Below, piece by piece: positions 2,976 through 39,456 of a stretch of DNA of 39,456 nucleotides. Numbering within the stretch: position 1 is the first letter of the stretch; the number at the start of each line of letters is the position of its first letter. The notes under the pieces were generated by a model. The model did not search any database, was not told where the DNA came from, and saw only the letters and a list, made by a program, of their open reading frames with translations. Source of the DNA: a virus; IMG/VR virus record IMGVR_UViG_3300045988_145861, positions 1 through 39,456 of that record, one strand, 5' to 3'. Made by a program: the position numbers and the translations under genes.

Positions 2976-4139
2976 ATGGCATCTGTCAAGGCAGTGAAGC
3001 ACCGTGACGGCACCGTCGTCTACAGGGTCCGCTACCGCGCGGGCGGGCGCAACCCAGTCGTAGAGACGTTCTATGATGCCGCGAGCGCCAAGCGATTCGC
3101 CGACCTCGTCGACCGCGTCGGCGGGGCCGCCGCCCGCGAGATGCGCAGCCTCGACGACCTCGCAGCCGCCGATACGCCGACTGTCGCCGCGGCGTGCGAA
3201 CACCACCTCGAGGCCCTGGCCGCGTCGGCAACGCCCGGCACGATCAGCAGATACAGGCAGATCGTGCGGGACCGGATCGAGCCGAGCCTCGGACTCATCC
3301 CTGTGGACATGCTGACGAGGCATGCGGTCACGAAGTGGGTCGCCGAAATGAGGCGTACGCCCGTCGCTCGCGGTGCCACCGCTGGCCGCCCCCCGTCAGC
3401 AAAGACGATCCGCAACGCCCAAGCCCTCCTATCCGCTGCCCTGCAACGCCTTGTTAACGAGGACGTCATTGCCCGCAACGTCGCCAAGGGCGTCCCCCTA
3501 CCCAAGGACGCGACCGTGCGCGAAATGCGCTTCCTCACCCCCGACGAGTACACGCGCCTCCACGCGCAGATCCCCGCCGACTACCAGCCCTTCGTCGCCG
3601 CAATGTACGGCCTCGGCCTGCGCTTCGGCGAGGCAACCGCCCTCACAGTCGCCGACGTCGACCTCGACGTCGCACAACCCGTCGTCCGCGTCAGCAAAGC
3701 CTGGAAAATGGGCGAAAACGGCACCCCCTACCTCGGGGCCCCGAAAACCAAACGCGCACGCCGCACGGTCACCATCCCCGCGCCCCTCATCCCTGAACTG
3801 CGCGCCGCGCTCGCGGGCAAGGCCTCGGATGAGCTGGTATTCACGGCGCGCAGGGGCGGGCCGATCACGTCGGGGCCATTCCACGCCCACATCTGGCAGC
3901 CTGCGTGTGATGCGGCGGGCCTATCGCCGCGACCGCGCGTGCATGACCTGCGCCATTCGCACGCGTCGGCACTGATCGCGGCGGGCGTCCCCCTGCCCGT
4001 TGTGCAGCGCCGCATGGGGCACGAATCAATCCAGACGACCGTCGATGTATACGGGCACCTCGCGCCTGATGCTTACGCAGGCGCGGCTGAGGCCATGAGC
4101 GTGGCCATGGGCGGGGTGACCCCTCAACTCGGCATGTGA
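2976..4139 (+). CDS. int: Tyrosine recombinase / phage integrase
   Basis: C-terminal catalytic signature HDLRHSHASALIAAGVPLPVVQRRMGHESIQTTVDVYGHL, with an upstream GLRFGEATAL box. Adjacent to the tRNA-like attP. Confidence 0.93.
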   Translation: MASVKAVKHRDGTVVYRVRYRAGGRNPVVETFYDAASAKRFADLVDRVGGAAAREMRSLDDLAAADTPTVAAACEHHLEALAASATPGTISRYRQIVRDRIEPSLGLIPVDMLTRHAVTKWVAEMRRTPVARGATAGRPPSAKTIRNAQALLSAALQRLVNEDVIARNVAKGVPLPKDATVREMRFLTPDEYTRLHAQIPADYQPFVAAMYGLGLRFGEATALTVADVDLDVAQPVVRVSKAWKMGENGTPYLGAPKTKRARRTVTIPAPLIPELRAALAGKASDELVFTARRGGPITSGPFHAHIWQPACDAAGLSPRPRVHDLRHSHASALIAAGVPLPVVQRRMGHESIQTTVDVYGHLAPDAYAGAAEAMSVAMGGVTPQLGM

Positions 4140-28363: not shown

Positions 28364-28828
28364 TTAAAACGGGGGGTCGGTGGGCATGGGTTGGTTGGCC
28401 CACGGGCTGCCGCCGACGGGCTGACCCGTGACGTTGCCAGGCGCGGGCGCTGGCCCGCGCTGCGCCTGGTACTGGCGTCGCGCGGCGGTCGATCCGAGGA
28501 ATCGCGGGTTGATCACTTCGAGGGCTTCGTGGCGCTGGCCGTCCTTGCCGGTGAATTCGACCTTGGCGATCACGCCGCTGAGTGCGACCTGGTCACCTTT
28601 CCGGCACGTCTCAGCGATCCACGAGTGGCGTTCGCCCCACAGGGCGGCGCGCACCCACACGGGTGCTCCCGCGTCCTCCCACTCGCCCGTGGGCTTACCG
28701 TCCGGGCCTCGGCGCTGCCTGCGCGGCGTCGCGCAGATCCGCAGATCCGTGACTTGCTGGCCGCCCTGGGTCCAACGGACCTCGGGGTCAGCGCCCAGGT
28801 TTCCGCTGATGGTTGCTTCGATTGCCAT
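28364..28828 (-). CDS. ssb: Single-stranded DNA-binding protein
   Basis: OB-fold N-terminus MAIEATISGNLGADPEVRWTQGG, Gly/Pro/Gln-rich tail, C-terminal tip TDPPF. Confidence 0.88.
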   Translation of the reverse strand: MAIEATISGNLGADPEVRWTQGGQQVTDLRICATPRRQRRGPDGKPTGEWEDAGAPVWVRAALWGERHSWIAETCRKGDQVALSGVIAKVEFTGKDGQRHEALEVINPRFLGSTAARRQYQAQRGPAPAPGNVTGQPVGGSPWANQPMPTDPPF

Positions 28829-28995
28829 GATTGATGTGTCCTTTTCGTTGATTTCACGCCGATTGTCGGGCGTGGGGTAGTTGTTGTGGGCCGCGAGCGC
28901 GTTTATTGTCTGCCCGGTCTATTCGCTGTACGGCGTTTTGCGGCCCGTTCGCACCCTCGGGTGGGTGTGGGTACCGCCGGGGGGCTGTTCGCCTG

Positions 28996-29478
28996 TCAGA
29001 GGCCCGCGCTGGGGGCTTGTCGGGGGGTTGCTGCGTTGAGCATGGCCTGCCAGTCGGCGGGCGGGGGCGCGGATGGGAGTTCTCGGCGTTCGCGGGGTGT
29101 GCGTTGGATGGCGTGCCAGGCGCGGGCGTCTGCCTGTGCCCCGTCGCATCCGGCTTTGATGGCTCGGATTTGGGCTTGTTTCCAGGCTGCCCAGTCGCCG
29201 GGGGTGTCGGCGAGTTCGTCGGGCGGCTCGGGTAGGCCCATGCGGACGGCGGTTTCGAGCCTGGCCTTGCCGAGGCTGCGCCAGCGGCGGTTGATGTCGG
29301 CGGGCATGATCCATGCGCGTTCGTCGCGGTAGTGCTCGCTGACGATGCGCAGCGCATCGGCGAGGGGCATGTCCTGGTTGAGGGCTTCGGCCCAGGCGAG
29401 GGCTGCGGCCTCGTTGGGCTGGCGGTTGTCGTAGGCGGCGGCTTTGGCGAGTACTTTCGCGGCTTCTTGGGGGGTCAT
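28996..29478 (-). CDS. Hypothetical replication-module protein (160 aa)
   Basis: ATG 29478 overlaps the initiator stop (ATGA). The upstream part of track ORF 28996..29796 is Arg/Pro-rich noise. Confidence 0.5.
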   Translation of the reverse strand: MTPQEAAKVLAKAAAYDNRQPNEAAALAWAEALNQDMPLADALRIVSEHYRDERAWIMPADINRRWRSLGKARLETAVRMGLPEPPDELADTPGDWAAWKQAQIRAIKAGCDGAQADARAWHAIQRTPRERRELPSAPPPADWQAMLNAATPRQAPSAGL

Positions 29479-30452
29479 GCACAGGCTCCTTCGATGGCGA
29501 TCAGGCTGGGCTGGCTGGTGGGCTGGTGGTTGGGGTCGAGGCTGTCCGCGAGGGCGAGCCACCCGTTGACGCGGTCGTCGGTGGTGGCACGCGGGGCGGG
29601 GCCTCGGTTCGGCTGAGTGTGCTGTTCCTGGCACCTGCGCGCCCAGTTGCGCCACGTGGCAGCCCAGTCGGCGCGGACGCCGCGCTGCCCTGAGAGCGAT
29701 TGCCAGTAGTCCCGAAAGCGGTCGACCTCGACGGCGTTCGCCGCGGCGGGGGCGTTGGCGCGGGTCCAGTCCGCGAGGGCCTGGTCCGGCTGCCACCCGT
29801 CAGGGAGCCTGGTTCCACGCGAGGCCCGCGCTCGCGGTGAAGGCTTCTTGGCTTCGACGGTGTTGGCGCTCGCGGTTGCCGGCGCCGCGTCAGCGGCGAC
29901 GGTCTGAGTCTCAGCGACGGCGAGGGTGAGGATTTCGGATGAGGGGGGAACTAAAAGGGGAGTAGTAATACTTTCTTTTCTCTCTTCTCTTTTCTCTTTG
30001 CTCCGCGTGTCACGCCCCATGTCACGCCCCATGTCACGCCCCATGTCACGCGTGACATGCTCCGGTTCGCCCTGTTCGGACTTTCGGGCGCGCTCGCGGG
30101 CTTTTCTTGCCCTCGCGGCGGCGCGTTTTGCGTCGTTTTTTGCCTGGGTGTCACGGTAGGGGGCGTTCCATTTGAGCCAATTTGTCACGCTTACGGCGGC
30201 GTGACTTTTTGTGACAAGACCGTGACTTTCACACTCTGTCACGCGTGACATTGCGTCGGGGATGCCGAGGCGGTTGACGGCGACTTCGAGTGGGATGACG
30301 CCGTCGGTTTCGGGGTGTGCTGCGCACCAGGCGAGGGCGCGCACATACCACAGCTCGGCGTCGGGGCCGACGGCGATAATTGCGGGATCGTCGTAGTACG
30401 CGGCTGCGAGGGCCGCGTAGCGGCCGGGCCGCTTGAAGCCGGTGCGTGCCAT
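29475..30452 (-). CDS. Replication initiator / replisome-organiser-like protein
   Basis: Two-domain layout: an N-terminal winged-helix-like region, a low-complexity linker (RDMGRDMGRDMGRD, KEKREERKE), and a C-terminal LPDGWQPD...FRDYW...DWAATWRNWARR typical of DnaD/organiser-type phage initiators. Iterons lie inside the gene. Confidence 0.6.
   Translation of the reverse strand: MARTGFKRPGRYAALAAAYYDDPAIIAVGPDAELWYVRALAWCAAHPETDGVIPLEVAVNRLGIPDAMSRVTECESHGLVTKSHAAVSVTNWLKWNAPYRDTQAKNDAKRAAARARKARERARKSEQGEPEHVTRDMGRDMGRDMGRDTRSKEKREERKESITTPLLVPPSSEILTLAVAETQTVAADAAPATASANTVEAKKPSPRARASRGTRLPDGWQPDQALADWTRANAPAAANAVEVDRFRDYWQSLSGQRGVRADWAATWRNWARRCQEQHTQPNRGPAPRATTDDRVNGWLALADSLDPNHQPTSQPSLIAIEGACA
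29951..30250. other. Candidate origin of replication: AT-rich tract, 12-bp iterons and TGTCACGCGTGACA palindromes
   Basis: By my count 29961-30000 is about 30% G+C. TGTCACGCCCCA x3 at 30008-30043, TGTCACGCGTGACA at 30044-30057 and 30237-30250, and further GTCAC/GTGAC cores at 30149, 30183, 30199, 30211 and 30221. Confidence 0.6.
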
Positions 30453-30643
30453 TAGCTCATCCTTTCGTCTGGCTCTATGCGGATCTCAATCTGTTGGTAG
30501 TCGGCAAGCGCGTAACCGCTGATGTCTGCGATCACCCACCCGGTTGGGATGGTCTGTAGCGCCTCGATGAGTTCGCCGGGGTCGATCCGTTCGCCGTGTT
30601 CGACGCGGATTGTGAGTAACTCGGTACGGACTGCGCTAAGCAT
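30452..30643 (-). CDS. Small-protein family member P1 (63 aa)
   Basis: Track ORF. Shares a strand-helix-strand-strand pattern with five other small ORFs (see findings). Confidence 0.55.
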   Translation of the reverse strand: MLSAVRTELLTIRVEHGERIDPGELIEALQTIPTGWVIADISGYALADYQQIEIRIEPDERMS

Positions 30644-30833
30644 CTTCGTGTTTCCGCTCTGGCTGCGTGTAGTAGGTGATTTCTGTGACGGCCTGGTAGC
30701 CCTGCTCCACTGTCTCGATGGTGAGCACGCGGGCGGTGTCAGGTAGGCCGGTAATCGCCTTGGCGAGCTGTTCGGGGTCGATTCCGAACGACGCGTTGAA
30801 GCGCACGGTTGTGTGCCTGATATTCCTGGGCAT
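30636..30833 (-). CDS. Small-protein family member P2 (65 aa from ATG 30833)
   Basis: TAATG stop/start overlap with P3. Confidence 0.55.
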   Translation of the reverse strand: MPRNIRHTTVRFNASFGIDPEQLAKAITGLPDTARVLTIETVEQGYQAVTEITYYTQPERKHEDA

Positions 30834-31042
30834 TACTGGGCCTCCCAAGGCATTACTGTGGTGTAGTAGATAGCGACGCAGCGCGTTGGAATCGGCCCGT
30901 CATCTTCGGTGATACGCATTTCAACGATGTCTGAGTAGACGGGCATTTCATCGAGCATCCGTTGCACGGTTTCCGGGAGGATCGGCTTGTCATCTGTCAG
31001 TCTGAACGTCACATACATGGTCGGTTTGCGTTTGCGTGCCAT
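30833..31042 (-). CDS. Small-protein family member P3 (69 aa)
   Basis: Track ORF. Confidence 0.55.
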   Translation of the reverse strand: MARKRKPTMYVTFRLTDDKPILPETVQRMLDEMPVYSDIVEMRITEDDGPIPTRCVAIYYTTVMPWEAQ

Positions 31043-31043
31043 G

Positions 31044-31301
31044 TCATGGCCTCCTGTAGCGTGCGAAGGCTGGATTGTCGACGTACGTGATCGTGAGGGC
31101 CCGCTTTGCTACCTGGGTTATCTCGTGTGGCTCTTCCACTGGGATGTCAGCGACCGATAAGCCTGTGATCAACGCGCCGTCAGGCAGGGTGTCACTTAGC
31201 CCGCGAATAAGGTCGCTTTTTTCAAGCAGTTCCTTGCGGCCCCAGGTGAGCTTCACGGTGTGGGTGGTCTGCGCTTCGATCTTCCCCATGTCAGTTGCCA
31301 T
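31044..31301 (-). CDS. Small-protein family member P4 (85 aa; alternative start at 31289)
   Basis: Track ORF. Confidence 0.5.
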   Translation of the reverse strand: MATDMGKIEAQTTHTVKLTWGRKELLEKSDLIRGLSDTLPDGALITGLSVADIPVEEPHEITQVAKRALTITYVDNPAFARYRRP

Positions 31302-31491
31302 TCTCGGCGGGCTCGCGGTAGGCGATGACGAGGCGGCGGCCTTCGTGAAGGGGGGTCTGCCGGTCTACGGTCATGTCGTCGATGACTGCGCCTGGCTTGA
31401 GTTGTGCGAGTAGGGCGGTCACGACGGAGGGTGTGACGCCGTCGGCGCGGTCGAACGTGACCGTGAAATGGCCTCGGATGTAGTGCTTCAT
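31291..31491 (-). CDS. Small-protein family member P5 (66 aa)
   Basis: Track ORF with a 4-nt overlap onto the RusA-like gene. Confidence 0.55.
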   Translation of the reverse strand: MKHYIRGHFTVTFDRADGVTPSVVTALLAQLKPGAVIDDMTVDRQTPLHEGRRLVIAYREPAENGN

Positions 31492-31874
31492 TTGGTCTCC
31501 TGTTCCTGAATTATGAGGGTCACCGTGTGGATGCCCTTGGGCGATTTTTGCGGGTCTCGCGCGAAGGCAACGAGGGGTAGGTGCGTGTGGTCGTCGTCGT
31601 CCCAGACGCGGGCGTCCACGAGGCCGTCAATGATGGCCTTCACGGTTGGTTCGGCGTTGGTGGGGTCGGCGCGCCCCTTGGTGGGGTAGCCGATCATGGT
31701 TGTGACGATGCTGGGGCCGAGGCGACTGCCTGCCAGGCCGTGGATGCGGGCCTCGCTGGCTGCGTAGGCTCGGAGCATCCGTGTGCGTCGCATCCGCGTT
31801 GACCAGTGGAGTCTCTGGTTAGCGGTGAGCCACAGGGCTTTGTGGACGCCGATTGTGAGCGTGTGACGGCTCAT
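31488..31874 (-). CDS. rusA: RusA-like Holliday junction resolvase (128 aa)
   Basis: GRADPTNAEPTVKAIIDGLVDARVWDDDDH matches the RusA DPDN...D.L...DD pattern. ATG 31874 overlaps the upstream stop. Confidence 0.7.
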   Translation of the reverse strand: MSRHTLTIGVHKALWLTANQRLHWSTRMRRTRMLRAYAASEARIHGLAGSRLGPSIVTTMIGYPTKGRADPTNAEPTVKAIIDGLVDARVWDDDDHTHLPLVAFARDPQKSPKGIHTVTLIIQEQETK

Positions 31875-32719
31875 TTGTCGTCCATATGCGTTAGGGCGAC
31901 TGCGGCGGCGTGGGCGGCCTGTAGGGGCACGGTGCCCGAGTAGAGCAGGCCCATGCGCTGGTCGTGGGTGAGGCGCATGTCCGGCGTGCTCACGTAGCCG
32001 ATAGGTAGCCCCATCATCCACTCGACGAAGCCGAGGGACAGGCGGCCCGGGGCGGGGCTGGTGGGCAACGTGTACAGGGGATACGGGTACCGTTCGCCGG
32101 TGACTTTCTCCCAGTGTTCGAGTGCCCGGCTGTCGGCCTTTCCTTCCATGTCGGCGCGCGCCCACCTGTCTGCCTCGCTGTCGAGGTAGGTGCAGTAAGC
32201 ACTCGGGCTGGTCCATAGGCTGCCGGTCCATGGGGCAGCGTCCAGGTACGCTTCGTTCACGCGTGGCGCGGGGCAGTCGTTGCGGACTCCTATCGCGTAC
32301 GAGCGTAGGCGGAGGTGGGGTGCGCCGACATCGTTCGAGCACATGCGAAGCCATAACGAGCGGTATCCGTGGCTGTCGAGGTATTCGCAGATGGGCACGG
32401 CTTCGTCGTTGGGGAGCTGCGCCTCGACGATGACGAGCGGCGGTTTGTAGCCTTCGTCGATAAGCGGCGCGCCCGTGGTCTGCCAGGTCGCATACCTGTT
32501 GATAGTGAGCACGTCCACCATCGGCGGCGGCGCGTCGATGACGGTGTGCGCGCCCGCATGGGGGTGGTGGTAGCGCATCGCCGTGCGTCCGGGGCAGTCG
32601 GCCGCCTGGCCGGGGTGTGCGTGCCAGGCGAGCGTCGCGCCGCCCAGCGCGGCGGCCACACCGATAGGGAGGCCACCGTAACCTGGGTCAATAGCGCCGA
32701 TGGTCAGTTCCGTAGTCAT
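31871..32719 (-). CDS. C5-cytosine-methyltransferase-like paralogue lacking the catalytic motifs (probable pseudoenzyme)
   Basis: Aligns by eye with 33712..34950. Motif I is GYGGL in both. Motif IV GSPCQ is replaced by LTINRY, ENV by EAQ, and GAPHQRAR by GAPHLRLR. The C-terminal FVEWMMGLPIGYV and SGTVPLQ are retained. Confidence 0.65.
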   Translation of the reverse strand: MTTELTIGAIDPGYGGLPIGVAAALGGATLAWHAHPGQAADCPGRTAMRYHHPHAGAHTVIDAPPPMVDVLTINRYATWQTTGAPLIDEGYKPPLVIVEAQLPNDEAVPICEYLDSHGYRSLWLRMCSNDVGAPHLRLRSYAIGVRNDCPAPRVNEAYLDAAPWTGSLWTSPSAYCTYLDSEADRWARADMEGKADSRALEHWEKVTGERYPYPLYTLPTSPAPGRLSLGFVEWMMGLPIGYVSTPDMRLTHDQRMGLLYSGTVPLQAAHAAAVALTHMDDK

Positions 32720-32994
32720 CGGTCGCTCCTGTTCTTCGGTGCGTCGTCTGCGGTGACCTCGGGGACAACCTTGATGTGCATAGGGCCGCGCTCATCAGGC
32801 GAGAAAACAACCAGGCTTCCAGCGTGCGCGAACCACCTGTACCCGCAGCACCCCGTCAGCCAATAGCCGGGATTGTTAACTTCGACGGCAAGCTCGCTGC
32901 CCTCATTGCGGACAGTCACGCCGAGGCCCCACGCTCTCAGGGCTTTCGTGTCGGCCTCGGGGTCGCCCGTGAGCCTGTAGGCATAGAAGTTCAC
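32716..32994 (-). CDS. Hypothetical protein (92 aa)
   Basis: The GTG at 32994 overlaps the upstream stop (GTGA). Confidence 0.45.
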   Translation of the reverse strand: MNFYAYRLTGDPEADTKALRAWGLGVTVRNEGSELAVEVNNPGYWLTGCCGYRWFAHAGSLVVFSPDERGPMHIKVVPEVTADDAPKNRSDR

Positions 32995-33299
32995 GCGAGT
33001 TCCTCCTCGGTGATGGCCTGGCCGGGGTGCGTGTACCAGGCGCGGAAGTCGCCCGCCGTGCGATTCGAGACGCGCAGCCTGCCAGGCGTGGACACGAGCA
33101 TGTCGCCTTCTATGGCCCACACGGTGGGGCCGGGCCCGGTCAGGTAGATCAAGCCGTCGTCGGTGCATGCGACCACCTTGCGGGCGATCTTCGCAATCGC
33201 AGTCGCGTTGTCGCGGGTCAGGCGCACCGCGCGCACCATGACGCGCTCCTGGTAGGTGCGCACGCCGTCAAGCCCGGCGAACGGGTCAAACGTAGTCAT
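32991..33299 (-). CDS. Hypothetical protein (102 aa)
   Basis: ATG 33299 follows GAGGAGGAAACAGG and overlaps the upstream stop (ATGA). Confidence 0.5.
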   Translation of the reverse strand: MTTFDPFAGLDGVRTYQERVMVRAVRLTRDNATAIAKIARKVVACTDDGLIYLTGPGPTVWAIEGDMLVSTPGRLRVSNRTAGDFRAWYTHPGQAITEEELA

Positions 33300-33715
33300 C
33301 CTGTTTCCTCCTCTGTGAGAAGTGAATCTTGTGTGTGGGGGGACCTGTCCCACGTCCGGTAGTAGGGGTTGGCGTATTCGGCGAGGCCGCGCGGGTTCGC
33401 GATCTCTAGGAGAACGTCTGCGTGGCATGGCTGGCCCAGTGGACACCAGCACGCGAGGTCGCGACCCCAGAGGACGCGGCGGGCAGAGTCCTCTACGTGG
33501 CGCCCCTCCCTCGTTGTCTCGAGCCACTCACGGAATCGCTCGACTGCCTCCTCGGGCGTGGCGACAACCATGGGATCGCCAGCATCGAGTTCGCGTCGTG
33601 TTCGGGCGACTCGGTAGGGGTTCCCGTACAGGCTTCCCCTGCCCACGTACTTGGTGTGCGCGGGCATACGCCACCCGCGTGTCCGCTGGCGTTGGACACG
33701 GATCGGCACCCTCAT
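33296..33715 (-). CDS. DUF4326-family protein
   Basis: YVGRGSLYGNPY...GRDLACWCPLGQPCHADVLLEIAN matches the DUF4326 signature (GRGS.WGNP...L.CWC....CHAD.L). Confidence 0.7.
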   Translation of the reverse strand: MRVPIRVQRQRTRGWRMPAHTKYVGRGSLYGNPYRVARTRRELDAGDPMVVATPEEAVERFREWLETTREGRHVEDSARRVLWGRDLACWCPLGQPCHADVLLEIANPRGLAEYANPYYRTWDRSPHTQDSLLTEEETG

Positions 33716-34950
33716 GAGCGTTCCTCCGTCCGCGCCGCTCGGATGAGCGTCCCGACCGCGAGCGCGGTTTGTTGTGGGACGACTCCGTTTCCGAGGAGCC
33801 GTAGTTGGTGCTCACGTGGCAGGTCGAGGTCGGTGACGTGGCCGTCTGGTAGGCCCATGAGCCATTCGACGAACCGTGTGGAGAGCTGGGGTTTGCCGCC
33901 TGGGCGGCGTGATGGTGTCGAAGGGGGTGGGGCTGCCCGGCCTGTGATCTGTTCCCATCGGGCGATCACTTTCGCGTAGGGTCCGAAGTGGGTGAGGTCG
34001 CTGCTGGTTGCTACCTCGTGCAGGTTCGGCCCGTATCCGGTGGATGACCTGGACGCGTTCACTGCCTGCGGTGTCGGGAGGAGTCCCCCTGTTGGGAGCA
34101 GGTCGTTTTCGACGATGATGGCCAGGTCCGTGACGCGCTCCCTGACTGGCTTTTTGCGCAGGTGCTCGGACGGGCTGTTTCCCGAGGGCTGGGCGACAGG
34201 TGTGGGGAGGAGCTGCACTGCCTGCGTGAGGCTGTGGCCTGTGCCCTCTGGGTGGCGGCCAGCTTTGTGGTCCGACGCGGTTGGCGTCGGGATCAGAGGG
34301 CAGTCACTTGGTCTTGTAGGCTCACGCTGTGGCCGCCTGCCCGCCGCTTTTCGGGGTGCTGGGGGCCTCCGCATGTCCCAAGGTTGGCCGTGGGGGTGGC
34401 CAATAAGGAAGAGGCGGGCGCGCTGGTGTGGTGCGCCGGCGTCGGAAGCTCGTATAACTGCCCAGTGACAGTCATACCCGAGGCCGGCCAGGTCTCCTGC
34501 CACACGGCCTGCTGCCCTGAGAGCAGGTCGAGTTGCTTGGTCTCCCAGCATTGTCGGCTCGGATTCCAACGGGCTATAGGCTCTTGCACTGAGGGCTCCT
34601 TGCACGTTTTCCCACACCACGAGGCGGGGTCTGATGGTTTCGATTGCGGCGGCCATGGATTCCCAGAGGCCCGAGCGTGTGCCGGTGGCCATGCCTGCGC
34701 GTTTGCCTGCGAGGCTGAGGTCTTGGCATGGGCTGCCGCCGCAGATGATGTCGACGGGTTCCACGTCTGCCCAGTCGATCTGGGTGATGTCCCCGAGGTT
34801 CGGGGTGGTGGGCCACCTGACGGCAGCGAGCTTGCAGGGACCGGGTTCAACGTCGCTGGTCCAGGCGACCCGCGCGTCGGGGTCTATGGCCATGGCGACC
34901 CCCATATCCAGGCCGCCGTACCCGGTGAACAGACTCCCGATGGTGGTCAT
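33712..34950 (-). CDS. DNA (cytosine-5)-methyltransferase
   Basis: Motif I LFTGYGGLDMG, motif IV GGSPCQDLSLAGKR, motif VI VVWENVQG, motif VIII GAPHQRARLFLIG, motifs IX/X FVEWLMGLPDGHV and LLGNGVVPQ. Confidence 0.92.
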   Translation of the reverse strand: MTTIGSLFTGYGGLDMGVAMAIDPDARVAWTSDVEPGPCKLAAVRWPTTPNLGDITQIDWADVEPVDIICGGSPCQDLSLAGKRAGMATGTRSGLWESMAAAIETIRPRLVVWENVQGALSARAYSPLESEPTMLGDQATRPALRAAGRVAGDLAGLGYDCHWAVIRASDAGAPHQRARLFLIGHPHGQPWDMRRPPAPRKAAGRRPQREPTRPSDCPLIPTPTASDHKAGRHPEGTGHSLTQAVQLLPTPVAQPSGNSPSEHLRKKPVRERVTDLAIIVENDLLPTGGLLPTPQAVNASRSSTGYGPNLHEVATSSDLTHFGPYAKVIARWEQITGRAAPPPSTPSRRPGGKPQLSTRFVEWLMGLPDGHVTDLDLPREHQLRLLGNGVVPQQTALAVGTLIRAARTEERS

Positions 34951-35183
34951 TGTTCCGCCAGCTCCTCGACTGAGATACCGACCTCCCCGGGCGCGGCGGT
35001 GGTGCTCGTGTAGCCGACAGCGAGTTTGGCGCTTTCGTTGAAGTATCCGGCTGGCCTGATCTGTATGTTGTCGATCATGGAGCCTTCGGGCAGGCGGAGC
35101 ATGATCGCGCCGAGGAGCGCGGAGGGGATACCCTTTCGCGGGTCGTAGGTGATGGTGAATACATCGCGGCGTTGCGTGCTCAT
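34947..35183 (-). CDS. Small-protein family member P6 (78 aa), detached copy
   Basis: VFTITYDPRKGIPSALLGAIMLRLPEGSMIDNIQI...KLAVGY follows the same pattern as P1-P5. Confidence 0.55.
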   Translation of the reverse strand: MSTQRRDVFTITYDPRKGIPSALLGAIMLRLPEGSMIDNIQIRPAGYFNESAKLAVGYTSTTAAPGEVGISVEELAEQ

Positions 35184-35347
35184 TGTGCGGTCCTTTCGAT
35201 GTCGCTCAAGTGCAGTATGAGGTGGTCAACATGAGTGGCTGCTTCGTCGATGGCGAGGGTGATACCCAGCTTGTTGGCGATGCCTGCGGCTTCCCTGATC
35301 TGCTCTCTCGCTTCGAAGAGGCAAGACAGTACGTCATCCACATTCAT
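35180..35347 (-). CDS. Hypothetical small protein (55 aa), below the track length cutoff
   Basis: My translation: MNVDDVLSCLFEAREQIREAAGIANKLGITLAIDEAATHVDHLILHLSDIERTAQ. GAGGAGGA RBS and ATGA overlaps at both ends. Confidence 0.5.
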   Translation of the reverse strand: MNVDDVLSCLFEAREQIREAAGIANKLGITLAIDEAATHVDHLILHLSDIERTAQ

Positions 35348-35493
35348 GCGAAGTCCTCCTCACTAACGCTGGCGGCGGCCATTTGTGCTGCGAGCTGGGT
35401 GACCGCGTCCTGTAGTGCCGCCATGGCGATTGCTTCACGCAGGTGGGCGGCGGCCTCCGCGTAGGGGCTCTTGTGCGGCCATTCGGGGATCAT
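35344..35493 (-). CDS. Hypothetical small protein (49 aa), below the track length cutoff
   Basis: My translation: MIPEWPHKSPYAEAAAHLREAIAMAALQDAVTQLAAQMAAASVSEEDFA. The ATG overlaps the methyltransferase stop (ATGA). Confidence 0.45.
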   Translation of the reverse strand: MIPEWPHKSPYAEAAAHLREAIAMAALQDAVTQLAAQMAAASVSEEDFA

Positions 35494-36519
35494 GCTGCGT
35501 CATCTCCCATGCCGAACAGGTTGAGGGGCGCTTCGATGCCCTGCGCGAAACGTGCTTTGATGAGCGGGATGTACCTGTCGTCGAGTTCGCAGCCGACCGC
35601 GCGCACGTTCTCCATGGCCGCCGCCTGCAGGGTTGTGCCCGACCCGGCGAACGGTTCGAGGATCAGCGCACCGGGCCGCACCACGAGACGGATCAGGTAT
35701 CGCATGAGCTCGAGGGGCTTCACGGTGACGTGCTGTACCCCCCCCCACGATGGGGCGCTCGCGCTTAGGGGCCTTCGGTTGGTATCTGAATACCGGCCAC
35801 ACGTGGTCGGGGGCGCCCTGCTGCACGGCGGCGGCCATGGCCTGCTCGCCCATGAGCAGGTTCGGCGGGTACGAGCCGCCCGCTGCGTCCATGCCTGCGC
35901 GAATGTTCATCGCGCCGGTGCCGTGCTCACGGACGTTGTCGACCAGGCGGCCCTCGAGAGGGCGTCGCGCGACGACGATGGGCTCCCACGCTGGTTTAAG
36001 GCCGACGCCCCAGCCTTCCCAGGTTTTGGCTTCGTCGGTGACAGGTTCGCCGGTGGCGTGGAGTTTGTGAGATGACATGTGCGTCGCGGTGGCCTCGTCT
36101 GCCCATTCGCGCACGTCGCGGCCTTCGCGTTGATCCAGGACGCCCGTGGCGCGGTCGAACGCTGATGAGAGGTCCATTCCGGCGGGTTTGCCGTCGGCTC
36201 GTATCCAGGCCATAGCGTCGCGGATCTCGAAGCCGGCGTCCTCGAGGGCGCTCGTGAGCCGGTGGTAGGTTCGGGGCGCGCTGAACGCGAGCAGGTAGCC
36301 GCCGGGCTTGATGACGCGCAGCGCCTCCTCTCCCCATGACTGCGCCCACGCCTGGAACCCCTGCGGGGTGGCCGTGTCCCACTTCTCGCCCGCGAAAATG
36401 ATCCCGTAGGGCGGGTCAGTGATGACCGCGTCGAAATGATCGGCGGGGAGCCTGCGCATGATGTCCCGGCAATCCCCCTGGTGCAGGGTGATGCCGTCGT
36501 ATAGGTCGATTCCGTTCAC
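35490..36519 (-). CDS. Beta-class (DPPY first, FxGxG last) N6-adenine/N4-cytosine DNA methyltransferase, frame-interrupted at a G9 tract (35738-35746)
   Basis: GTG 36519 overlaps the RecT stop (GTGA). N-terminal part: ITDPPYGI motif IV. After the G9 run the true continuation HVTVKPLELMRYLIRLVVRPGALILEPFAGSGTT (motif I) is in the other frame (track ORF 35490..35723). 1030 nt is one nt too many. Confidence 0.8.
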
Positions 36520-37523
36520 GCTGCGCCCCCGTTCGGGTCGGTGTCGTCGCCGTAGTCGAAGATCGGGGCCTGCTGGTCGTCGATGATCTCGACCTCGGCC
36601 TCGGGCGCCGGTTCGGGCGCCGGCTGGGTGCGACCGCTGTTGTAGATAGCGAGCAGCTCGGCGTGGATTATGGAGGCCTGTTCGTCGTTCAGGGCGGTCA
36701 CGGAGATGAGCTGGCCGAGGCACCGCTTGCACAGCGCATCGTAGGCTTCCTGGGTGAAGCTGAGGATGTCGAGGCCCTTTGCGACGCTGGCCTGCGCGGG
36801 CGTGAGCGGCTTTGCAGGCTGGGTTAGCTCATGTGGTGCCGCCGCGGGCGTCGCGGCCGGCGTCGGCTTCGCCGCCGGGGCAGGCTTGGCGGGTGCTTCG
36901 GCGACGATCTCCGCTTCGATGACCTCACCCGTCTCCGTCATGGTGGCCCCGAAGTCCTCGGGGCTGTAGATCATGCCCATGAGGGCTTCGGATGCGCCTT
37001 GGCGCGCGACCTCGGTGATTGCACGGGTCCTGAGCATCTGGGTCGGGTACTGCGACCAGGGCCCCTTCTGGCCCCACAGGCCCGCCTTCACGGCCTTGTC
37101 CTTGTCCCAGGTCACCTCGAATTTGAACGTCTTGTCGTCCGCGCGGATCAGCGTCGCAGTCACGGACTCGGGGCTGTTTTCGGCGATGCGCAGGGTGTGG
37201 CCGGCGCGGCGGATCACGGCGGCCATGAGGTCGGATGAGAGTGTCGCCCGCCCGTTGATGACGGCGATAGAGGCCAGCGCTTGGAGCGGCTCGAGGCCGA
37301 GGGCTGCGCCGGTTTCGGCGGCGACAAATGCGTTCGCAGGGTTGCCCCTGTATGCGGTGGGGATGATCGTTGAGGGGGCGATCCGCGCGATGTAGGCGGC
37401 GCGTTCCTGCAGGCCGGCGGTGATGTAGGAGAATCCGGGGGTTGGCGTGGGGGCCGGTACTGGGGTGGTTTTCGCGGCGGCCTTGCCGCGAGGCTTAGCG
37501 ACTTCGGTGGAAGCCATGAGCAT
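36516..37523 (-). CDS. recT: RecT-family single-strand annealing recombinase
   Basis: ...AALGLEPLQALASIAVINGRATLSSDLMAAVIRRAGH...WGQKGPWSQYPTQMLRTRAITEVAR is a RecT-like core, with an Ala/Pro-rich acidic tail. Confidence 0.8.
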   Translation of the reverse strand: MLMASTEVAKPRGKAAAKTTPVPAPTPTPGFSYITAGLQERAAYIARIAPSTIIPTAYRGNPANAFVAAETGAALGLEPLQALASIAVINGRATLSSDLMAAVIRRAGHTLRIAENSPESVTATLIRADDKTFKFEVTWDKDKAVKAGLWGQKGPWSQYPTQMLRTRAITEVARQGASEALMGMIYSPEDFGATMTETGEVIEAEIVAEAPAKPAPAAKPTPAATPAAAPHELTQPAKPLTPAQASVAKGLDILSFTQEAYDALCKRCLGQLISVTALNDEQASIIHAELLAIYNSGRTQPAPEPAPEAEVEIIDDQQAPIFDYGDDTDPNGGAA

Positions 37524-37550
37524 GATTCCTTTCAGTAGGAGATCGGGGTG

Positions 37551-37889
37551 TCAGTCCTGGCCCTTTCGGCGGCGCCTGGTTGCCGACCGGCGCTTCGCCT
37601 CGTTCTGGTCCAAGGAGAGCCACACGAGGTAGCCGCCTTGTCCGTCCGAGCGGGAGTCCACGACCCAGAACGTGCCGTGACGGTTAAGGCTGTGAGCGTA
37701 GGCGCGGATCGTGTCCACGCGGCGGCGGGGCCAGCCGCCTGTCTCGCTGTCCTCGTTCGGTAGGAGAAACGTTTCGCCTGGGTGCGTCTGGATGTGGCGA
37801 CGCTCGGCGGGCGTCGTGATGCGCAGGAACAGGGGGGCGTGGGAGCCGATCTGCGTCTTGCCGGGGATCGGGGCTTTACGGATCGTCAT
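37551..37889 (-). CDS. Hypothetical protein (112 aa), basic C-terminus
   Basis: Track ORF, ATGA-coupled to the upstream gene. Confidence 0.5.
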   Translation of the reverse strand: MTIRKAPIPGKTQIGSHAPLFLRITTPAERRHIQTHPGETFLLPNEDSETGGWPRRRVDTIRAYAHSLNRHGTFWVVDSRSDGQGGYLVWLSLDQNEAKRRSATRRRRKGQD

Positions 37890-38101
37890 TCTGCTTCGCC
37901 TCCCTGCTGTTCTTCGCGGCCCATGACGGCGAGGGCGAGTGCGATACCGCAGGCGGTGGGGATGAGGGCGAGGACGCCGGCGGCGAGGTTTCGCTCGTAG
38001 ACGGCCAGAAGCATCGCGAGTGCGCCGTTGGTTACGGATGCGGCGGCGGCCAGGAGGTAGATGGTTGCGGCGGTCTTGGTGTAGACGGGCACGTATCGCA
38101 T
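37886..38101 (-). CDS. Small two-TM membrane protein (71 aa from ATG 38101)
   Basis: AAGGA RBS before ATG 38101. Hydrophobic segments AATIYLLAAAASVTNGALAMLLAV and VLALIPTACGIALALAVM. Confidence 0.5.
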   Translation of the reverse strand: MRYVPVYTKTAATIYLLAAAASVTNGALAMLLAVYERNLAAGVLALIPTACGIALALAVMGREEQQGGEAE

Positions 38102-38131
38102 GGTGGTTTTGTCCTTTGGGTGATTAGGGGG

Positions 38132-38166
38132 TGGGGGCCGCCGGGCTGCCAGCGGGGCGGCCCCCA
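38132..38166 (-). terminator. GC-rich hairpin (11-bp stem TGGGGGCCGCC / GGCGGCCCCCA) between early genes, possible attenuator
   Basis: Read directly. No U-tail. Confidence 0.3.
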
Positions 38167-38177
38167 CACGGGCGGGG

Positions 38178-38474
38178 TTAGGCTACGAGCGGCTGTTCGG
38201 GCAACGTCGCGGCGAGCTTCCTAGCGACAGCTTCGCGCATGTCGGCGGCGCCGATTGCGGCGTCCAGGTCGTCGATGATCTTCGTCATCCTGTCGTGCTC
38301 CTTGCTGAGCACTGCCTTTGCGACGCGGATAGCTGCGGCGGTGTGGAGTCGCTCGACTTCTTCGTGGTCGATCTCGGCGGCGAGGCTTTCCTCCTTGAGG
38401 AAGGCGCGCAGCCACGTCAGGTCGTCGAGCTCAATAGTGAGTGTCACCGGGTTTACGAGGTGCTTCGTGGTCAT
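38178..38474 (-). CDS. Hypothetical protein (98 aa)
   Basis: Track ORF. The ATG overlaps the adhesin stop (ATGA). Confidence 0.5.
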   Translation of the reverse strand: MTTKHLVNPVTLTIELDDLTWLRAFLKEESLAAEIDHEEVERLHTAAAIRVAKAVLSKEHDRMTKIIDDLDAAIGAADMREAVARKLAATLPEQPLVA

Positions 38475-39401
38475 CGTCCGTGGCCTCCCAGGTAACGGCG
38501 GTTGATGACGTACCCACCGGCGGTGAGGAGGACACCCAGGGCGAAAGACCCGAGCGCGACCTTGATGCCGTCGAGGGTTGCGCCGGTCTTAGCGAGCTGA
38601 GTCGCCGGGGCCGGAGCGGGCTGTGCGTCTGCTTTCGGCTCGGGCTTCGGGGTCGCGTGCGTGGGCACGGGCACCGGCTCGGTGGTCACGCGCGGCTCCG
38701 GGGTGGGGTCAGGAGTCGGCGTGGACTGGGGTTCGTCCGAGGGCTTCGGTGCGGGCGTCGCAGGCGTGGACGGGGTGGTGGGCGTCGGCTCCGGCGTGGG
38801 CTCCGTGGACGGCTCGGGGGCCGGGGCGGGCGTGGGCTTCACGGTGCCGTCACCGTCGGTGCCGCCGCCGGCCTTCACTGTCGCGGTCGCCTCCAGGCTC
38901 GCGCCGTTGATCGTCGCCTTGTTGGTGTACGTCGTCACGCCCTCGACGGGCTGCGTCGCGTCAGGGTAGGTCACGCACGTGAGAGCCCCGGTCGGGGGCG
39001 TGAACACGAGGGTGTGCTTCGTGTCGTCGAGCTTGCCGTCAGTCCACGACGTGGTCGCGGGGTCCCAGGTCGGGCCGGTCGAGCATTTCACCGCCGTGTG
39101 CAGTGTGTTGGTTTCGTCGATGATCGTGTACTCGACGCTGGGGTCCGCCTTCCACTGGATGCCCCACCCGACCGAGCCGTCGCGGTTGGTCCACCCGTAC
39201 TTCACGGTTTCGGGCCGTGCGTACTCGTAGTGAGCGGGGCCGGAGCAGTCGTTGCTGCAGGTGCCCGTGCCCTCACGGTCGCCCCACACGAGGGTGCGGA
39301 CGACCTGCCCGTTCAGGGTGATCGAGGTCGATTCAGTTCCAACCGCCTTGTCGACGAGGCTGGCGCGGGCATGGAACGTGCCCGTGACGTTCTCCTTCGC
39401 G
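38471..39401 (-). CDS. Cell-wall-anchored adhesin, C-terminal segment: Ig-like domains, Pro/Thr-rich stalk, LAKTG sorting signal
   Basis: C-terminus ...ATQLAKTGATLDGIKVALGSFALGVLLTAGGYVINRRYLGGHGR is an LAXTG motif, a hydrophobic helix and a basic tail. The track Met at 39427 is internal; the true start is at 344 across the junction. Confidence 0.8.
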
Positions 39402-39456
39402 GCCCACGCTTCGGGCACGTCCGTCACCGTGCAGGTGAGGGTCGCCTGGTCGGCGA
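39402..39456. repeat. Terminal direct repeat, copy 2 (identical to 1-55)
   Basis: Same 55-mer as at the left end. Confidence 0.95.

Follow-up and report, generated by a model that had tools for sequence, protein, structure and literature searches.

Diversified paralogs with a predicted beta-alpha-beta-beta fold form a variable gene array in the early region of an uncultured phage

The DNA considered here is a viral sequence of 39,456 nucleotides (nt), positions 1 to 39,456 of the IMG/VR record IMGVR_UViG_3300045988_145861; 'the window' below means this whole stretch. It contains five small genes, c1 to c5, that run head to tail on the minus strand from 31491 down to 30452, and a detached sixth gene of the same kind, c6. 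Profile comparisons confirm the six as real, diverged paralogs, and structure prediction suggests a beta-alpha-beta-beta unit. As far as the searches reach, the sequences represent a new family with a narrow distribution. Our preferred explanation, to which we give a probability of roughly 0.4, is that the units are independent, dispensable binding modules that are made early and act stoichiometrically on host proteins, in a takeover of the host that may include counter-defence. The family members in the window are:

c1: 31291 to 31491, minus strand, 66-amino-acid (aa) family member, first gene of the array
c2: 31044 to 31301, minus strand, 85 aa; its beta2-beta3 loop is longer and its tail (...ARYRRP) is basic
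c3: 30833 to 31042, minus strand, 69-aa family member
c4: 30636 to 30833, minus strand, 65 aa from the ATG at 30833
c5: 30452 to 30643, minus strand, 63 aa, more acidic (charge about -7) and better conserved than any other member
c6: 34947 to 35183, minus strand, detached 78-aa family member

The original prediction, made from the letters alone, described six such open reading frames (ORFs), and all six are present on the minus strand. One start was revised: the ORF list begins c4 at a TTG at 30848 (70 aa), and we prefer the ATG at 30833 (30636-30833) because the c4 orthologs are 65 aa, the same length that the ATG yields.

The six copies have only 16-27% pairwise identity, and pairwise BLAST among them is weak, the c1-c6 pair excepted. 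More sensitive comparisons were made with leave-one-out hidden Markov models (HMMs), in which every copy, when held out, outscored at least 992 of 1000 shuffles of its own sequence; c1, c3, c4 and c6 outscored all 1000. The result for c1 was 19.9 bits versus a shuffle maximum of 8.1. The weakest copy was c2, at 4.8 bits, which 8 of 1000 shuffles equaled or exceeded. An HMM of all six members found no seventh copy among the 568 ORF segments of the window, the next best segment scoring 4 bits.

For profile-profile comparison, a separate alignment of orthologs was built for each paralog (8-60 sequences), and all pairs were compared with hhalign. Column shuffles served as controls (n = 300; mean score 9.8, 95th percentile 13.1, maximum 22). 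All 15 pairs scored above the 95th percentile of the shuffles, 10 of them at or above about the shuffle maximum, and the alignments are in register for nearly all pairs. The highest probabilities were found for c1-c6 (97.6%, P 4e-12), c4-c5 (88%), c2-c5 (75%), c4-c6 (65%) and c1-c3 (52%). Since strong pairs link all six copies, their similarity is confirmed. The original prediction took the copies for old, diversified duplicates rather than an artefact, and the HMMs, hhalign and shuffle controls bear this out. It also named an outcome that would count against it, no mutual similarity and differing folds; the similarity that we find stands above the shuffle controls, and the predicted folds agree.

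The fold was modeled for three of the copies. An AlphaFold2 model of c6, built on a 71-sequence alignment of the family, contains beta1 (residues 3-13), alpha1 (21-30), beta2 (36-45) and beta3 (51-62), followed by a disordered tail; its mean predicted local distance difference test score (pLDDT) is 73, and about 83 in the core. A natural in-frame fusion of c1 and c3 from a relative (P0002) was modeled with each half aligned to its own orthologs only. Both halves again come out as beta-alpha-beta-beta, a semi-independent confirmation of the predicted fold for c1 and c3. The fusion model has a predicted template modeling score (pTM) of 0.44 and a disordered linker between the halves; thus, there is no confident packing of one half against the other. 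The order of strand, turn, helix, strand, loop and strand that had been read from the sequences matches the models of c6, c1 and c3.

Known families can be searched with the sequences or with the models, and neither approach placed the family. Scans of the six proteins against Pfam (at E <= 1), PHROGs, PADLOC and NCBIfam returned nothing significant, PADLOC giving a single 12-bit match at chance level, and a Pfam scan of the 71 alignment members at E <= 10 returned no recurrent family. A profile search of PDB sequences gave chance matches only (E >= 0.2). With the c6 model as the query, Foldseek found nothing below E 0.15 in the PDB and nothing at E < 0.01 in BFVD, where the best match is an unnamed 57-aa viral protein (E 0.018) and the others are assorted uncharacterised small actinophage proteins. 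Foldseek matches of the c1-c3 fusion model were rejected as meaningless (template modeling (TM) score <= 0.28). The original prediction remarked that it knew of no described family with such a layout, and this agrees with the lack of a match in Pfam, PHROGs, PADLOC, NCBIfam, PDB sequences and Foldseek.

The distribution of the family was determined with an HMM search that covered 1.84 billion representative proteins exhaustively and gave 41 matches. All of the short ones come from the same phages, as orthologs, frameshift variants or chimeras; long, T/V-rich matches to giant proteins were discarded as spurious, since they add up repeat matches of <=14 bits each. In this search the family is confined to two uncultured phage lineages, with genomes of ~39 kb (the window lineage) and ~28 kb. 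Orthologs of c3 make up 52 of the 120 top homolog clusters, and in all >50 c3 ortholog clusters were recovered; c3 was not found in 185,579 reference genomes, and tblastn found no cultured phage that encodes c5.

The relatives of the window are human-metagenome contigs of about 39-40 kb, including IMG/VR contigs, and one of the records is labeled human oral metagenome. Two matches in genome collections, with terminase identity of 98%, are contigs of metagenome-assembled genomes (MAGs) binned as uncultured Actinomycetaceae and Actinomyces sp.; from this MAG binning, the host is probably a human-associated Actinomyces. MAG relatives include CAUTGT010000001.1 and MGYG-HGUT-01273. The large terminase shares about 52% identity with its counterparts in Arthrobacter phages, and the only DNA relative in cultured phages is a methyltransferase segment, 72% identical, of Propionibacterium phages PFR1 and PFR2. 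The presence of integrase and repressor-type genes indicates a temperate phage. Across the window ends, the integrase gene (2976-4139) lies about 11 kb from the array, compared to about 8-9.5 kb in relatives; on these distances, the window of 39,456 bp probably represents an entire phage genome in circular permutation.

To survey related arrays, the family HMM was run over 46 fetched loci. The array of the ~39-kb lineage has a fixed site, in the order RusA, array, initiator: RusA precedes the array in every locus of this lineage with gene calls listed, and an initiator, of either of two N-terminal types (described further below), follows it in most. The content of the array is not fixed. At least 12 architectures occur, the number of copies ranges from 1 to 6 and there is no fixed core set, so the copy-number variation that the original prediction proposed to look for in related phages is extensive. 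The architectures seen include:

c1-c2-c3-c4-c5 (the window)
c1-c3-c2-c4-c5
c1-c3-c4-c5
c1-c3-c4
c1-c4-c5
c1-c2-c4-c5
c2-c3-c4
c1-c3'-c5
c1-cX-c4-c5
cN-c1-c3-c4-c5
c1-(half of c3 fused to c4)-c5
c6 alone

Nearly all related arrays contain c1, and in many relatives c2 is missing or follows c3. Inspection of six short or atypical arrays revealed no undetected members or spacers; the members abut without gaps. The extra subtypes found in relatives are cX, cXb and cN. Of these, cX is supported as a member by hhalign probabilities of 63-89% against the family profile; it forms 93 clusters of its own, none of them annotated. A 98-aa protein of one locus (L024) fits the pattern by eye, and its membership was not confirmed, the hhalign value of 10.7 being at shuffle level. 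In the second, ~28-kb lineage, c6-like and cX-like genes lie between a pair consisting of the initiator and a 166-aa protein on one side and SSB on the other. Members can also be fused: in-frame c1-c3 fusions occur as two diverged variants (P0002 and P0003) in at least 13 contigs and are 58-68% identical to the window copies, and a c3-c4 fusion (P0007) was seen once. Both halves are conserved in all three.

Five proteins of metagenomic relatives (P0125, P0139, P0146, P0155 and P0158) are out-of-register chimeras. These combine the N-terminal half of c1 with a C-terminal part of c3, c4 with the C-terminus of c5, or fragments of RusA, methyltransferase or initiator with halves of c1 or c5, and they indicate either frequent illegitimate recombination at the array locus or assembly artefacts.

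Substitution patterns were compared among orthologs as the ratio of nonsynonymous to synonymous rates (dN/dS, by NG86). The values are 0.49 for c1, 0.48 for c2, 0.49 for c3, 0.36 for c4 and 0.24 for c5, within a range of 0.23-0.52 for the five; the value of 0.61 for c6 comes from a single pair. Among the neighbors, the ratio is 0.19 for RusA, 0.35 for a methyltransferase-like gene and 0.50 for the initiator. The array genes are real and under moderate purifying selection. The idea that the shared pattern is coincidental, or that the ORFs are not genes, could still appeal to c2-c4, c3-c4 and c3-c5, pairs that are weak individually (hhalign scores 13-14.5). Set against it are the full set of 15 pair scores above the shuffle 95th percentile, the graph of strong pairs that joins all six copies, the tens of orthologs per gene with dN/dS below 1, and the single fold shared by independent models (c6, and the halves of the c1-c3 fusion). 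Leave-one-out HMMs, hhalign with its shuffle controls and dN/dS effectively refute it.

The subtypes have few features in common. In a comparison of nine subtype consensus sequences, the hydrophobic core pattern and an L..LP turn are all that is shared, and there is no conserved Trp, Cys, His or charged residue. Within a subtype, the median identity of orthologs is 62-89%, with c5 the highest at 89%. The proteins are neutral to acidic, with isoelectric points of 4.3-6.8 (4.3 for c5). Because the products are neutral to acidic, DNA binding is unlikely, and because only the core and the LP turn are common to the subtypes, non-enzymatic binding modules are probable. Together, the conservation pattern and the acidity point to non-enzymatic, non-DNA-binding modules with putative partner surfaces that differ from subtype to subtype.

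The genes flanking the array, and the one next to c6, are:

RusA-like Holliday junction resolvase: 31488 to 31874, minus strand, 128 aa, phrog_34 (E 5e-15), upstream boundary of the array
Replication initiation protein: 29475 to 30452, minus strand, 325 aa, phrog_2447 (E 4e-23), downstream boundary of the array
C5 cytosine DNA methyltransferase: 33712 to 34950, minus strand, 412 aa, PF00145 (E 3e-32), directly downstream of c6

The two PHROG matches support the early-region placement between initiator and RusA in the original prediction. Taken together, the flanking genes are RusA, the initiator, a weak methyltransferase-like gene, DUF4326, the C5 methyltransferase, an N6/N4 methyltransferase and RecT.

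The genes of the array are very tightly packed. Within it there are overlaps of 11 nt between c1 and c2, 1 nt between c3 and c4 (TAATG) and 8 nt between c4 and c5, while c2 and c3 lie 1 nt apart. At its ends, the ATG of c1 overlaps the RusA stop codon by 4 nt (ATGA), and the stop codon of c5 shares 1 nt with the ATG of the initiator gene. The detached c6 likewise overlaps the start of its C5 methyltransferase by 4 nt. Most array genes have Shine-Dalgarno-like sequences, which sit in the last codons of the preceding gene. Within 30452-31491, examples of these junctions are TGGGAG, which encodes the end of c3 (...P-W-E), AGGAGG in c2 (...R-R) and GAAAGGA in c5 (...D-E-R). Since Shine-Dalgarno sequences lie in the last codons of upstream genes, part of the conserved acidic C-terminal 'P-x-E' motif may reflect a constraint at the nucleotide level. 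No promoter-like or terminator-like sites were found on the minus strand within 28800-39456; the tight packing and the absence of interrupting sites fit one long early operon. A look for DNA repeats or iterons gave only a trace of the c4/c5 paralogy, at the IDPGEL/IDPEQL codons.

The predicted unit can be compared with several known folds of similar layout. The Foldseek neighbors of the c6 model in the PDB are ACT-type regulatory domains, EF-1beta and dodecin, with TM scores of about 0.4-0.5. The ACT-type neighbors are the acetohydroxyacid synthase regulatory subunit 6u9d, AF1403, AcuB and the regulatory domains of aromatic amino-acid hydroxylases; here the first four elements superpose (TM about 0.45-0.53 over about 60 residues). 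However, an ACT domain is beta-alpha-beta-beta-alpha-beta, whereas the models of the present family end at beta-alpha-beta-beta with a disordered tail. The Foldseek E-values for this relation are >= 0.15, none of the 71 members has a Pfam match in the ACT clan, and the glycine-loop motif of ACT-type ligand binding is not conserved in the family.

Dodecin is an 8-kDa beta-alpha-beta-beta protein that forms a flavin-binding dodecamer and occurs in Actinobacteria, a tryptophan sandwiching the flavin at the dimer interface (PMC7414021). In topology and size it is identical to the predicted family unit. The matches of c6 to dodecins (2vxa, 2yj0 and 9bwn) have TM scores of 0.35-0.42, probabilities of 0.21-0.47 and E-values of 0.67-1.1. 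There is no Pfam match to the dodecin family PF07311 among the six copies (E <= 1) or the 71 members (E <= 10), nor any conserved Trp column for flavin stacking, the consensus sequences of c1, c4 and c6 being without Trp.

The SHS2 module (strand-helix-strand-strand) binds small molecules or proteins, and paralogous pairs of it can cooperate (PMC12744356). The c6, c1 and c3 models have the same order of elements and a similar size per module, and the two-unit fusions mimic the layout of duplicated SHS2 proteins, such as GyrI-like proteins and the ExiA/ExiB immunity heterodimer. The difference is that the units here are stand-alone proteins of ~65 aa in a phage array. Recognised SHS2 families (GyrI, the FtsA insert, the Rpb7 N-terminus and MTH1598) are absent from the top 50 Foldseek PDB matches of both the single-unit and the fusion models, and the 71 members have no Pfam match to SHS2 families.

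At the level of the locus, the closest comparison is with hypervariable loci of phages, such as anti-CRISPR and anti-defence clusters or the internal-protein locus of T4. These encode small, often acidic proteins without enzymatic motifs and occupy a fixed site between conserved genes, with fast gain, loss and shuffling among close relatives. Diversified paralogs are also what makes up the tandem immunity-gene arrays of polymorphic toxin systems. Like phage accessory and anti-defence hotspots, the present array is a variable accessory locus at a fixed site, with its many architectures; this feature is not specific to anti-defence. Its members showed no homology to known anti-CRISPR, anti-defence or immunity families, and the locus is embedded in the replication module. 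Searches via PHROG, Pfam, BFVD and PADLOC found no anti-defence or anti-CRISPR homology, no dedicated library of such proteins having been searched, and next to the array there is no Aca-type regulator and no toxin gene.

With these results in hand, our preferred explanation can be stated more fully. The phages would carry lineage-specific mini-proteins of ~60 residues with the predicted beta-alpha-beta-beta fold, lacking a catalytic or cofactor-binding signature, in abutting cassettes. Each subtype would be an independent, dispensable binding module, in which the residues conserved throughout the family form the core and the surface conserved within the subtype binds that subtype's own partner. 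The products would be made together early after induction or infection and would most likely inhibit or redirect host proteins stoichiometrically, that is, serve host takeover, which may include counter-defence; catalysis and DNA binding by the units are unlikely. The argument for independent, dispensable functions is that the composition of the subsets varies, as is typical of accessory host-interaction genes; the lack of the family in the cellular genomes and cultured phages searched also counts in favor. Several points weigh on the other side: no partner, phenotype or homology to a characterised host-takeover or anti-defence protein was found; the structural models are of moderate confidence only (pLDDT 65-73); and there is no arms-race signal, since dN/dS in the array is no higher than in neighboring genes. 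In addition, the family lies inside replication modules in two lineages, which also fits a role internal to the phage.

This last point leads to a somewhat doubtful but substantive alternative, in which the units are replication or recombination accessory factors that bind or regulate the initiator, its partner, SSB or a recruited host replisome, and in which their variability arises from co-evolution with exchangeable initiator modules. In its favor, the array of the ~39-kb lineage always has RusA on one side and the initiator on the other, and the ~28-kb members are flanked by the initiator/166-aa pair and by SSB; the stop codon of c5 overlaps the start of the initiator gene, and c5 mostly co-occurs with one of the two initiator N-terminal types. 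However, that co-occurrence has exceptions both ways (L006 and L045), and linkage alone could produce it. Arrays of 1-6 members with no fixed core set, and a c6 that sits elsewhere beside a methyltransferase, are not what such a role would predict, and acidic mini-proteins without a conserved surface across subtypes ill fit one common replication partner. The original prediction had instead envisaged a host-takeover or anti-defence arsenal, with each copy tuned to a different target variant. The plasticity of the locus and the subtype-specific conservation are compatible with that proposal without discriminating for it, and direct support did not emerge: there is no similarity to known anti-defence or defence proteins, no Aca-like regulator next to the array and no arms-race signal in dN/dS. 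A replication-accessory role fits equally, because the family tracks the replication module in two lineages. In its most specific form, which we regard as unlikely, the array would be a cassette counter-defence or 'immunity' arsenal in which each unit neutralises a different host effector, either a protein or a signalling molecule, and the phage population would match the defence repertoire of local Actinomyces strains by reshuffling, duplicating, fusing and swapping units at the fixed hotspot.

The remaining possibilities concern how the units might work together or what they might bind. Paralogs could form mix-and-match hetero-oligomers by beta-sheet augmentation, with the assembly as the functional unit; beta-alpha-beta-beta is a topology of oligomerising modules, as the likeness to ACT domains, dodecins and duplicated SHS2 modules illustrates, both halves are conserved in the in-frame c1-c3 (P0002, P0003) and c3-c4 (P0007) fusions, and tight gene packing favors co-production. 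The fusion model nevertheless gives no confident inter-domain packing (pTM 0.44, disordered linker), and loss of a stop codon between abutting genes can create fusions trivially. Because subsets vary freely (c1-c4-c5, c1-c3-c4 or c6 alone), an obligate, defined complex is excluded, and we consider hetero-oligomers in general decidedly improbable. Lower still in our estimation, and very unlikely, are small-molecule 'sponges' or sensors with ligand pockets at subunit interfaces, each paralog binding its own metabolite or immune signalling nucleotide. The best structural analogues, themselves non-significant, are ligand-binding ACT-type regulatory domains and dodecin, and SHS2 modules typically bind small molecules (PMC12744356); yet no Foldseek PDB match reaches E < 0.1, the subtypes share no conserved polar or aromatic residue for ligand contact, and no known sponge family was matched.

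Small early phage genes of uncertain function are common, whereas six genes for one family in 39 kb are unusual. What is new here is that one diversified new family builds an otherwise familiar kind of variable accessory locus of small early phage proteins, turning over as cassettes at a fixed hotspot across a human oral phage population. The many array variants on near-identical backbones provide a natural experiment on small phage accessory proteins. If the units are inhibitors of host factors or defence, they would represent a new inhibitor fold family from an under-studied host, Actinomyces; should the arsenal idea in particular be correct, the array would be a phage analogue of polymorphic-toxin immunity-gene arrays, with units from a fold family not known before. 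If the units instead prove to be replication accessories, an unrecognised modular layer of phage replication initiation would come to light. Under either reading, the family merits a Pfam or PHROG entry.

Some further observations concern c6 and the methyltransferases. In related phages c6 is rare. In the window, L005 and L027/L028, a 412-414-aa C5 methyltransferase directly follows it, with a 4-nt overlap between the two genes. This unit occupies 33296-35183 in the window, 6385-7856 in L005 and 6001-7945 in L027/L028, three different genome backgrounds; in the window and in L027/L028, DUF4326 follows the C5 methyltransferase. Relatives without c6 have C5 methyltransferases of other lengths, 372 or 401 aa. 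In L028 (8878-10261), a phage-like early region leads via SSB into genes for ribosomal proteins S18 and L9, the host rpsF-ssb-rpsR-rplI neighborhood; this junction could be a chimeric assembly via SSB homology or a real recombination junction.

Three DNA methyltransferase-type genes lie within 5 kb of the window (31871-36732): a 282-aa C5-like gene below the Pfam cut-off, the 412-aa C5 gene and the N6/N4 gene. Such a concentration in a 39-kb genome suggests heavy investment in restriction evasion. The N6/N4 gene (35490-36732, minus strand) is split into overlapping ORFs of 410 and 77 aa by a poly-G tract at 35738-35746. It has nine residues (G9) in the window and in four other distinct contexts; L016, L037 and L046 have eight (G8) and an intact 420-aa gene. 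L015 (G9) and L016 (G8) do not differ in their c5 protein or in gene order. The pattern resembles phase variation of a phage methyltransferase by slipped-strand mispairing, homopolymer sequencing error being the alternative.

The initiator (29475-30452 in the window) occurs with two unrelated N-terminal domains, one with MARTGFKRPGRYAAL... and the other with MRIRTIKPEFWRS..., joined to a common C-terminal half. The two types divide L004, L009-L014 and L045 from the other loci, and in several relatives the first type is a separate ORF of ~100-112 aa. On this comparison of sequences, the initiator is subject to modular exchange of its N-terminal domains. Its gene also contains two adjoining tandem repeats, a perfect 12-nt x 3.7 repeat at 30008-30051 (TGTCACGCCCCA, plus strand), which encodes an (MGRD)n stretch, and a 7-nt x 4.3 repeat at 29974-30003; these could be a length-variable linker or origin-related repeats.

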